From: a virus
Taxonomy: Duplodnaviria > Heunggongvirae > Uroviricota > Caudoviricetes
Reading direction: 5' to 3' (one strand)
DNA: 18,170 bases
IMG/VR virus record: IMGVR_UViG_2802429219_000014
Under the pieces are notes generated by a model, which was given only the letters and a program-made list of their open reading frames with translations, was not told where the DNA came from and searched no databases. Shown in pieces: positions 7,445 to 15,394 of the stretch. Numbering within the stretch: the first letter of the stretch is position 1; each line of letters opens with the position of its first letter. The position numbers and the translations under genes are program-made.

Positions 7445-7618
7445 CTTATCTCTCCCCTTAACGCCGGGTGGCGGAACTGAAACCTGCTGCACTGCAAAAT
7501 CTGAACCCTGCCGTCATGTTCATACGCCTCGGGCTGGCTACTTAACCCCTGACCACTGCCTGGTAACTCGAAGTATTGCCCTGCGTTCTGTGGGACGGGG
7601 TGGGTTGGTAGGTATATG

Positions 7619-7660
7619 ATGTACTTTGTGTTCATTGATGTAAAGTACTTTAAGTACATT
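7619..7660. promoter_or_regulatory. Candidate left operator/promoter region (OL-like): three GTAC-core motifs (ATGTACT 7619-7625, AAGTACTT 7643-7650, TAAGTACATT 7651-7660)
   Basis: Repeats read directly in the sequence; the same ATGTACT core recurs between racR and ydaS; lies downstream of racR and upstream of leftward ydaG. Confidence 0.4.
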
Positions 7661-7734: not shown

Positions 7735-8154
7735 TTAAGAGGCTTTTTGTTTTTTCTTTCGTGCTAACTCTTCGTAAATTGCATTGTACTTCTGTTTTTT
7801 CTCCTCAAGAGTTTTTAAAAGTTCATCTGTCTCACTGTCAGGGAGCTCGTCCAGAAGGTCAATGATGATTTTTTGTCTTGGATTTAACTCCTGATAGAAA
7901 CGTACCTGTCCACTTTCTTCTGTATCCTCTCCCAAAAGATAGGTTGGTGTTGTTCCAATGAGTGTTGCTAATTCCCTTAATTTCTCTCGGCGAGGAATTG
8001 TTTCGCCATTAAACCATTTGCTAACCGCTTTTGGTGTTAATTTCATTCGACGGGCAATTTCTGCCTGCCTTCCATGTTGTTCATAACCAGCGTTTTCACA
8101 GGCTAGCGCAAGCCTACTGGCGAACTCTTTACGCGCTTTATCTTCATGAACCAT
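7735..8154 (-). CDS. racR: Prophage repressor RacR (139 aa as called here, HTH near N-terminus)
   Basis: HTH-like segment and divergent arrangement with the cro-like ydaS; position as in Rac. Confidence 0.85.
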   Translation of the reverse strand: MVHEDKARKEFASRLALACENAGYEQHGRQAEIARRMKLTPKAVSKWFNGETIPRREKLRELATLIGTTPTYLLGEDTEESGQVRFYQELNPRQKIIIDLLDELPDSETDELLKTLEEKKQKYNAIYEELARKKKQKAS

Positions 8155-8233
8155 AAGTTCAATGATATTCGCTCTTGAATGTACTGTCAGTTCTGTTATA
8201 GCATGTACTCAAAGTTCACATTGTGAGGGTGAT
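8155..8233. promoter_or_regulatory. Divergent racR/ydaS control region with two direct ATGTACT repeats (8179-8185, 8203-8209) and a rightward TTGAAT-16-TATAGC promoter-like element (8175-8202)
   Basis: Motifs read in the sequence; 79-bp interval between divergent start codons; operator role inferred by analogy with lambdoid OR. Confidence 0.45.
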
Positions 8234-8488
8234 ATGAACCAGAAAACACTTGAAGATGTAATCAAAACTGTTCGCGTTTCTGTTGTGGCCGACGTTTGTG
8301 GTGTCAGCCAAAGAGCAATCTACAAATGGATGGATAACGGAAAATTGCCTCGCACAGAATATACCGGCGAAACAAATTACGCTGAAAAAATCGCTCATGC
8401 ATCAAACGGATTATTTTCTGCCGATGTAATTTTAACTATTGGCAGAAATAAAACTACTACGAAAAAGCTGATGGGAGTTGATTCATGA
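8234..8488 (+). CDS. ydaS: Cro-like HTH protein YdaS (84 aa from the ATG with an SD; an upstream ATG at 8162 is implausible)
   Basis: SD GAGGGTG before the ATG at 8234; stop overlaps the ydaT start (ATGA); position as in Rac. Confidence 0.75.
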   Translation: MNQKTLEDVIKTVRVSVVADVCGVSQRAIYKWMDNGKLPRTEYTGETNYAEKIAHASNGLFSADVILTIGRNKTTTKKLMGVDS

Positions 8489-8907
8489 AAATCAAGCATG
8501 AGCACATCGAGTCAGTGTTGTTAGCCCTGGCAGCCGAAAAAGGGCAGGCATGGGTAGCCAATGCCATTACTGAAGAATATCTGCGCCAGGGGGGCGGCGA
8601 ATTGCCCCTGGTACCAGGCAAGGACTGGAATAATCAGCAGAACATCTATCACCGTTGGTTAAAAGGTGAAACGGAAGCGCAAAGGGAAAAAATTCAGAAA
8701 CTGATCCCTGCAATTCTGGCAATCCTTCCGCGCGAGCTGCGTCACCGACTCTGCATCTTCGATACCCTGGAACGCCGTGCATTACTGGCGGCGCAGGAAG
8801 CGTTAAGTACGGCAATTGATGCGCATGATGATGCAGTCCAGGCCGTTTACCGGAAAGCGCATTTCAGCGGCGGCGGGTCTTCCGACGATTCTGTCATTGT
8901 TCATTAA
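8485..8907 (+). CDS. ydaT: YdaT (140 aa), toxic partner of YdaS in Rac
   Basis: 140-aa ORF coupled to ydaS; size and position match Rac ydaT. Confidence 0.8.
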   Translation: MKIKHEHIESVLLALAAEKGQAWVANAITEEYLRQGGGELPLVPGKDWNNQQNIYHRWLKGETEAQREKIQKLIPAILAILPRELRHRLCIFDTLERRALLAAQEALSTAIDAHDDAVQAVYRKAHFSGGGSSDDSVIVH

Positions 8908-12657: not shown

Positions 12658-12833
12658 TGCTGCGGGTGCTTGAGGCTATCTGCCTCAGGCATGAACACCA
12701 AAAGGCAGATAGAGAAAAGCCCCAGTTAACATTACGCGTCCTGCAAGACGCTTAACATTAATCTGAGGCTCAATCTATGCTGAACACATGTAGGTTAGCC
12801 TCTTACGTGCCGAAAGGCAAGGAGAAGCAGGCT

Positions 12834-12989
12834 ATGAAGCAGCAAAAGGCGATGTTAATCGCCCTGATCGTCATCTGTTTAACCGTCATAGTGACGGCAC
12901 TGGTAACGAGGAAAGACCTCTGCGAGGTACGAATCCGAACCGGGCAGACGGAAGTCGCTGTCTTCACAGCTTACGAACCTGAGGAGTAA
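12834..12989 (+). CDS. hokD: Hok/Gef-family type I toxin (51 aa membrane peptide), HokD/RelF-like
   Basis: MKQQKAMLIALIVICLTVIVTALVTRKDLCEVRIRTGQTEVAVFTAYEPEE; single TM helix plus the conserved Hok C-terminal core; SD AAGGAG 9 nt before the ATG. Confidence 0.85.
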   Translation: MKQQKAMLIALIVICLTVIVTALVTRKDLCEVRIRTGQTEVAVFTAYEPEE

Positions 12990-15240: not shown

Positions 15241-15316
<76 letters not shown>

Positions 15317-15319
15317 TAT

Positions 15320-15394
<75 letters not shown>

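Follow-up and report, generated by a model that had tools for sequence, protein, structure and literature searches.

The two ATGTACT repeats that lie between divergent genes in this prophage DNA very probably represent TGTAC half-sites, each with a flanking A, of the operators OR2 and OR1 in a five-operator immunity switch of the HK022 type that has recombined into a Rac-type prophage. Sequence comparison across the whole stretch analysed (the window; 18,170 nucleotides of virus record IMGVR_UViG_2802429219_000014) placed the following features in and around the switch, the operators and promoters being predicted.

7616–7644, minus strand: PL-like leftward promoter (TTTACA 7644–7639, 17 nt, CATCAT 7621–7616).
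7620–7634: OL1, TGTACTTTGTGTTCA; overlaps the PL −10 and spacer and aligns with the annotated HK022 oL TGTACTTAAAGTTCA.
7644–7658: OL2, AGTACTTTAAGTACA; near-perfect palindrome at the PL −35, aligning with the annotated HK022 oL AGTACCAATAGTACA.
7735–8154, minus strand: immunity repressor, 139 aa; HK022-CI-like helix-turn-helix domain plus a short DicA-like C-terminal domain.
8147–8161: OR3, TGAACCATAAGTTCA; the repressor start codon (CAT, 8152–8154) lies in its central spacer.
8162–8190, minus strand: PRM-like promoter for the repressor (−35 CTGACA 8190–8185, 17-nt spacer, −10 TATCAT 8167–8162).
8175–8202, plus strand: PR-like promoter for the cro-like gene and ydaT (−35 TTGAAT 8175–8180, 16-nt spacer, −10 TATAGC 8197–8202).
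8179–8185, plus strand: first ATGTACT repeat; left half-site of OR2 plus one flanking base.
8180–8194: OR2, TGTACTGTCAGTTCT; fills the PR spacer and holds the putative PRM −35.
8203–8209, plus strand: second ATGTACT repeat; left half-site of OR1 plus one flanking base.
8204–8218: OR1, TGTACTCAAAGTTCA; the cro-proximal site, directly 3′ of the PR −10 and over the expected PR start.
8234–8488, plus strand: Cro-like regulator, 84 aa, with a helix-turn-helix; Shine–Dalgarno GAGGG at 8225–8229.
8478–8495: YdaT-box, TTGATTCATGAAAATCAA; perfect inverted repeat spanning the cro-like stop codon and the ydaT ATG.
8485–8907, plus strand: ydaT, encoding a CII-like regulator 98% identical to K-12 YdaT; second gene of the PR operon.

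Both heptamers lie where the original prediction had placed them, on the plus strand and 24 bp apart start to start, inside the 79-bp spacer that separates the two divergent ATG codons (minus strand, 8154, for the repressor; plus strand, 8234, for the cro-like gene). They also touch a promoter-like element, as the original prediction had said, and this element (TTGAAT/TATAGC) aligns column for column with the annotated hexamers of HK022 pR. Taken by itself, the heptamer repeat is weak evidence. Some exact direct 7-mer repeat arose in 17% of dinucleotide shuffles of the 79-bp spacer, and the number of ATGTACT copies in the 18-kb window (4, against 1.43 expected) was equalled in 12 of 200 shuffles and is not significant alone. 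These figures would suit a coincidence of chance or promoter composition with no protein-binding role, which we nevertheless regard as highly improbable: when extended, the two spacer copies agree at 12 of 15 positions, a match reached in 13 of 1,000 shuffles; a pair spaced by 24 bp occurs again at OL; a weight matrix derived from HK022 finds the sites independently; and their position is invariant across genera. The remaining two ATGTACT copies in the 18 kb, at 7619–7625 (plus strand) and 7653–7659 (minus strand), are 34 bp apart and adjoin the 3′ end of the repressor gene, just outside it.

The direct repeat that had been proposed proved to be the wrong unit. What is conserved is a 15-bp imperfect inverted repeat, TG(T/A)AC-N5-GT(T/A)CA, which is present five times and of which each heptamer forms the left half. 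The heptamer itself is not kept in relatives: the corresponding bases are ATGAACC (OR1) and CTGTACT (OR2) in HK022, and GTGAACT (OR2) in Klebsiella. The repeat is thus a by-product of OR1 and OR2 both happening to carry the T-variant half-site on the same side. The pattern TGWAC-N5-GTWC gave 8 strand matches in the window, all at the five sites, compared with 0.43 expected and with none of 200 shuffles doing so. Because this pattern was derived from the window itself, we made an independent test with a position weight matrix built solely from the five operators annotated in HK022 (GenBank X16093). Its top five matches on both strands of the 18-kb window were exactly the five sites, 8147–8161, 8204–8218, 7644–7658, 8180–8194 and 7620–7634, and the next match was clearly lower. 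The best of them, OR3 (21.4–23.5 bits), lacks the ATGTACT heptamer and is identical in sequence to both oR3 and oR1 of HK022. OR1 scored 16.4–17.7 and aligns with the annotated oR1 of HK022 and HK75. Taken singly, OR2 and OL1 scored within the range of best matches in shuffled windows; position and homology argue for these two as probable operators, OR2 being aligned to the annotated HK022 oR2 TGTACTATCAGTTCC. A prefix shared by OR1 and OL1, TATA..ATGTACT (family D4), is absent from OR2 and OL2, and we set it aside as a candidate for a longer operator for that reason.

The geometry of the array is that of HK022. The OR sites stand at −64, −40 and −7 from the repressor ATG, with spacings of 24 and 33 bp, and the OL sites, 24 bp apart, form a pair beyond the 3′ end of the repressor gene that overlaps the leftward promoter. 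The annotation of HK022, HK75 and O276 likewise has oR1 and oR2 24 bp apart, oR3 33 bp further on over the cI ATG, and two oL sites separated by 24 bp. HK022 thus shares with the window the 15-bp consensus, the 24- and 33-bp spacings, the placement of OR3 over the repressor ATG, the OL pair and a pR at the aligned position, and by blastn the OL segment and the segment comprising OR plus the N-terminal domain are 74.6% identical to HK022 over its annotated oL, oR, pL and pR. The two differ in the distance from OL to OR (about 700 bp in HK022, 560 bp in the window) and in gene content, with cII, nun and put of HK022 replaced in the window by Rac genes (ydaT and others). The centre-to-centre spacing of OR1 and OR2 in lambda is also 24 bp.

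We compared these sites with those of an E. coli variant (89%), of relatives from Salmonella, Klebsiella, Citrobacter and Raoultella, and of HK022, SI8 and phi24B. Wherever the repressor of a relative is called as starting at the aligned ATG, its OR sites again stand at −64, −40 and −7; two loci with a differently called start have the same 24/33-bp trio, shifted as a block. The OL pair is 24 bp apart in every relative whose OL flank was retrieved, and the columns that do not vary in the OR and OL alignments are those of the half-sites and promoter hexamers. The cI operators of 933W and phi24B carry related half-sites (CGTACTGAAAGTACG and TGAACCATGAGTACG) at corresponding positions, and the N-terminal domain of their CI is about 51% identical to the window repressor over 73 residues; they differ in a recognition-helix variant (SSKGVSKWFNAE), the presence of an S24 domain and a degenerate OR2. 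In the Salmonella relatives (L010 2553–3220; L011 2588–3255), a HigB-toxin gene and a helix-turn-helix gene lie between the repressor gene and the OL pair, an insertion that echoes the paaR2-paaA2-parE2 arrangement of CP-933P.

The weight matrix also recovered extra sites in HK022 (L004), at −331 upstream of the cI ATG and, weakly, at +715 downstream. The −331 site, about 300 bp to the right of OR, is the OFR site annotated in HK75, and the weak +715 site is 53 bp from OL2, fitting the OL3 spacing quoted in PMC8053113; the GenBank annotation of HK75 places oL3 elsewhere, 23 bp from oL2. For counterparts of OL3 and OFR, the HK022-derived matrix gave nothing of at least 9 bits at the corresponding places in the window.

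The promoters fit the same alignment. Annotated HK022 pR is TTGACT, 16 nt, CATAAT, and pL is TTTACA, 17 nt, CATCAT. The PR-like −10 of the window is preceded by TG at 8194–8195, and the TTG of its −35 and the TA of its −10 are invariant in the OR alignment (A1). The two PL-like hexamers agree with those of annotated HK022 pL at every base. A mirrored PL with its −10 between OL1 and OL2 showed no acceptable hexamers by eye, and the promoter scan and the HK022 annotation favour TTTACA-17-CATCAT. In the opposite direction to PR, the PRM-like element matched at 10 of 12 positions in the promoter scan, and T−12, A−11 and T−7 of its −10 are invariant in all 10 aligned sequences. If this promoter is correctly assigned, transcription would begin with the A of the ATG or immediately beside it and give a leaderless repressor mRNA. 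The lambda cI mRNA is also leaderless, and leaderless repressor promoters have been shown for K-12 racR (PMC9638921) and CP-933P paaR2 (PMC8630535). The PRM-like −35 lies inside OR2, so that lambda-style activation from OR2 is geometrically unlikely, which leaves maintenance expression of the repressor unexplained.

Consistent with an HK022-type array, both proteins encoded next to the operators have HK022 homologues. The Cro-like protein shares 62% identity with HK022 Cro over 73 residues, and residues 4–102 of the repressor are 47% identical to HK022 CI (99 residues), with a near-identical recognition helix (TPKAVSKWFNGE in the repressor, TPKAISKWFNGE in HK022 CI). The repressor matches a phage Tritos protein annotated ‘CI repressor’ at 100% identity and its counterpart in three vB_EcoS phages at 99.3%. 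A search of solved structures with the repressor returned as its sole match the N-terminal domain of P22 C2; no solved structure matched the C-terminal tail.

The repressor departs from HK022 CI in that tail. HK022 CI has a LexA-like S24 peptidase/oligomerization domain (Peptidase_S24, 69.5 bits), of the kind that serves RecA-stimulated self-cleavage and cooperativity, whereas Pfam detected only helix-turn-helix families, and no S24 peptidase domain, in the 139-aa repressor. Its last ~50 residues instead resemble the tail of DicA, the Qin repressor. BLASTP against K-12 DicA gave 29% identity over 112 residues (E = 5e-15), the short C-terminal domain included, and the NCBIfam DicA subfamily NF007257 matched residues 29–137 with 56.8 bits (E = 2e-15), below its cut-off of 101 bits. 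The repressor and DicA are thus related in architecture, but by the curated threshold the repressor is not a family member. The two share an LP-D/E-SE motif in the short C-terminal domain, but the DNA-binding domain of the repressor is much closer to HK022 CI, and we saw no TGWAC-N5-GTWC site by eye in the dicA-dicC spacer of Qin. In the repressor, the motif reads LPDSETDE and lies in the C-terminal third (window 7735–7900). Either tail is found among relatives that have the same N-terminal domain and operators: the Salmonella protein P0012 has the short one, and Raoultella P0021 and the Klebsiella phages have S24.

These comparisons also bear on which switch this is. The original prediction had read the locus as a RacR/YdaS switch controlling a toxic ydaS-ydaT pair. 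Part of this reading is borne out, in that the repeats do belong to the operators of a divergent repressor/Cro-type switch and do overlap the rightward promoter, but the promoter here drives a cro-like gene followed by ydaT, and the RacR/YdaS identity falls away. There are grounds for expecting sites of a RacR/YdaS/YdaT toxin–repressor module of the K-12 type. The context is Rac (ttcA-intR, recET, kilR, sieB and ydaF to the left, ydaT-ydaU-ydaV to the right), ydaT is nearly that of K-12, and the architecture parallels that of the K-12 Rac operators and leaderless promoter (PMC9638921). The left gene is nevertheless not racR: its product gave no match (E ≤ 0.01) to the NCBIfam RacR equivalog NF049929, on which K-12 RacR scores 244.6 bits, and BLASTP against K-12 RacR aligned only 33 helix-turn-helix residues. 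Nor is the right gene ydaS, its product giving no match (E ≤ 0.01) to Pfam YdaS_toxin PF15943, on which K-12 YdaS scores 107.7 bits, and aligning with K-12 YdaS by BLASTP over only 18 helix-turn-helix residues. The footprinted K-12 RacR operators have the form (T/A)TAGGC-N3-GCCTA(T/A) (PMC9638921); with up to 2 mismatches allowed, this motif is missing from the 18-kb window but occurs five times around K-12 racR, and the TGWAC motif was not found in K-12 Rac. On these grounds, it is exceedingly unlikely that the heptamers are RacR sites. The toxicity of YdaS is not transferable to the cro-like gene, ydaT alone of the supposed toxic pair being common with K-12.

The K-12 Rac module is thus a close parallel of another kind. 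It shares with the window the prophage, the slot, the downstream ydaT with its YdaT-box, and a short repressor without an S24 domain, and it is alike in layout, with a leaderless promoter and three operators, of which O3 covers the repressor ATG (PMC9638921). It differs in its operator, TTAGGC-N3-GCCTAA, which is unrelated, and in its repressor and cro-like proteins, which are not orthologous. Since each motif is absent from the other locus and the proteins are not orthologous, the two cassettes appear analogous in layout but heteroimmune. In K-12 Rac (L001), we also noted two RacR-type palindromes 3′ of racR, ATAGGTAATGCCTAA at 1952–1966 and ATAGGCTATGCCTAA at 1977–1991, 25 bp apart, an OL-like pair that mirrors the three sites of the racR-ydaS spacer. 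The PaaR2/YdaS/YdaT system of CP-933P has the same lambdoid OR/OL logic, a leaderless repressor gene and ydaT as a cII analogue, but its operators are 18-bp palindromes of the GTTTAGTAA type and its repressor belongs to another family (PMC8630535). Operators of this PaaR2 type, considered as a candidate, are not present in the 79-bp spacer.

Another protein of the switch, the CII-like YdaT, deserved consideration as the ligand of the heptamers, as K-12 YdaT protects the −35/−10 region of PydaST in the racR-ydaS spacer (PMC11879457) and the window encodes its close homologue. We consider this very unlikely, given that the YdaT motif TTGATT-N6-AATCAA has no match in 8155–8233 at up to 2 mismatches, that ATGTACT is unlike the YdaT half-site, and that these operators are also present in phages with cII rather than ydaT, HK022 among them. 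The motif is found instead with 0 mismatches at 8478–8495, its only perfect copy. This box is identical to the YdaT operator that footprinting defined in CP-933P (PMC9986795); the footprinted ‘YdaT-box’ of K-12 Rac has one base different (PMC11879457). It is part of the same switch and a separate type of operator.

With the heptamers assigned to HK022-type operators, the arrangement suggests how the switch would work. Dimers of the 139-aa CI-like repressor would occupy OR1 and OR2, at their centre-to-centre spacing of 24 bp; with OR2 in the PR spacer and OR1 over the PR start, this would turn off the cro-like gene, ydaT, ydaU and ydaV. Occupation of OL1 and OL2 would turn off PL, which reads towards ydaF, kilR, racC, recET and int. 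OR3, 33 bp from OR2 and lying over both the repressor start codon and the leaderless PRM-like start, would mediate negative autoregulation, and the Cro homologue presumably acts on the same sites. We infer repressor binding, the order of occupancy, cooperativity and OL–OR looping. PMC8053113, citing Carlson and Little 1993, reports that HK022 CI binds adjacent operators cooperatively and loops OL to OR. In HK022 CI, dimerization and cooperativity are provided by the S24-like domain. Because the repressor has an unrelated short DicA-like tail in its place, cooperativity and looping are not simply transferable; this tail would have to supply dimerization and any cooperativity. That a repressor combining an HK022-type recognition helix with a DicA-like tail still serves an array of exact HK022 geometry is a tentative proposal, which we hold to be possible but doubtful. 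The array is of the ordinary, already understood lambdoid kind; the domain-swapped repressor is its only unusual trait, and the mechanism is not new.

The cassette is common. Counting presence at 80% coverage or more of the OL-repressor-OR segment, we found it in 1,047 of 5,426 complete E. coli genomes (~19%), mostly at 95–99% identity. Literature searches that used the operator strings or paired HK022 with Rac returned, among the papers covered, none on this cassette, for which a complete predicted map of operators and promoters is now given. A different, heteroimmune cassette occupies the positionally labelled ‘racR-ydaS’ slot in about 19% of complete E. coli genomes, so that results on the essentiality of K-12 RacR, its operator and the toxicity of YdaS are not transferable to these strains; ydaT and its box are common to K-12 Rac and this cassette. 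If the repressor binds as predicted, an SOS-insensitive repressor would be present in about 1 in 5 sequenced E. coli strains. Cross-immunity to HK022-type phages may then follow, given how closely the recognition helices agree and that the OR3 sequence is the same, and an unrelated short helical tail would have to match the pairwise cooperativity of the S24-type domain of HK022. This natural domain swap, which joins an HK022-like DNA-binding domain to a DicA-like tail, could serve to probe how far operator geometry depends on the oligomerization domain.

Outside the switch, the gene order of the window is of the Rac type (intR, xisR, ralR, recT, recE, racC, ydaE, kilR, sieB, ydaF, repressor, cro-like gene, ydaT, ydaU, ydaV), and the sequence matches K-12 at the DNA level only from ydaT rightward. 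We also observed the RalA small RNA, the antitoxin of the RalR type I toxin–antitoxin system, at 1557–1735 (Rfam RF02694, 218.5 bits), a sok antitoxin RNA of a hok/sok-type module at 12664–12839 (Rfam RF01794, 119.6 bits), and, in the prophage late region, a pair of adjacent tRNA genes at 15241–15313 and 15320–15391 (Rfam RF00005).
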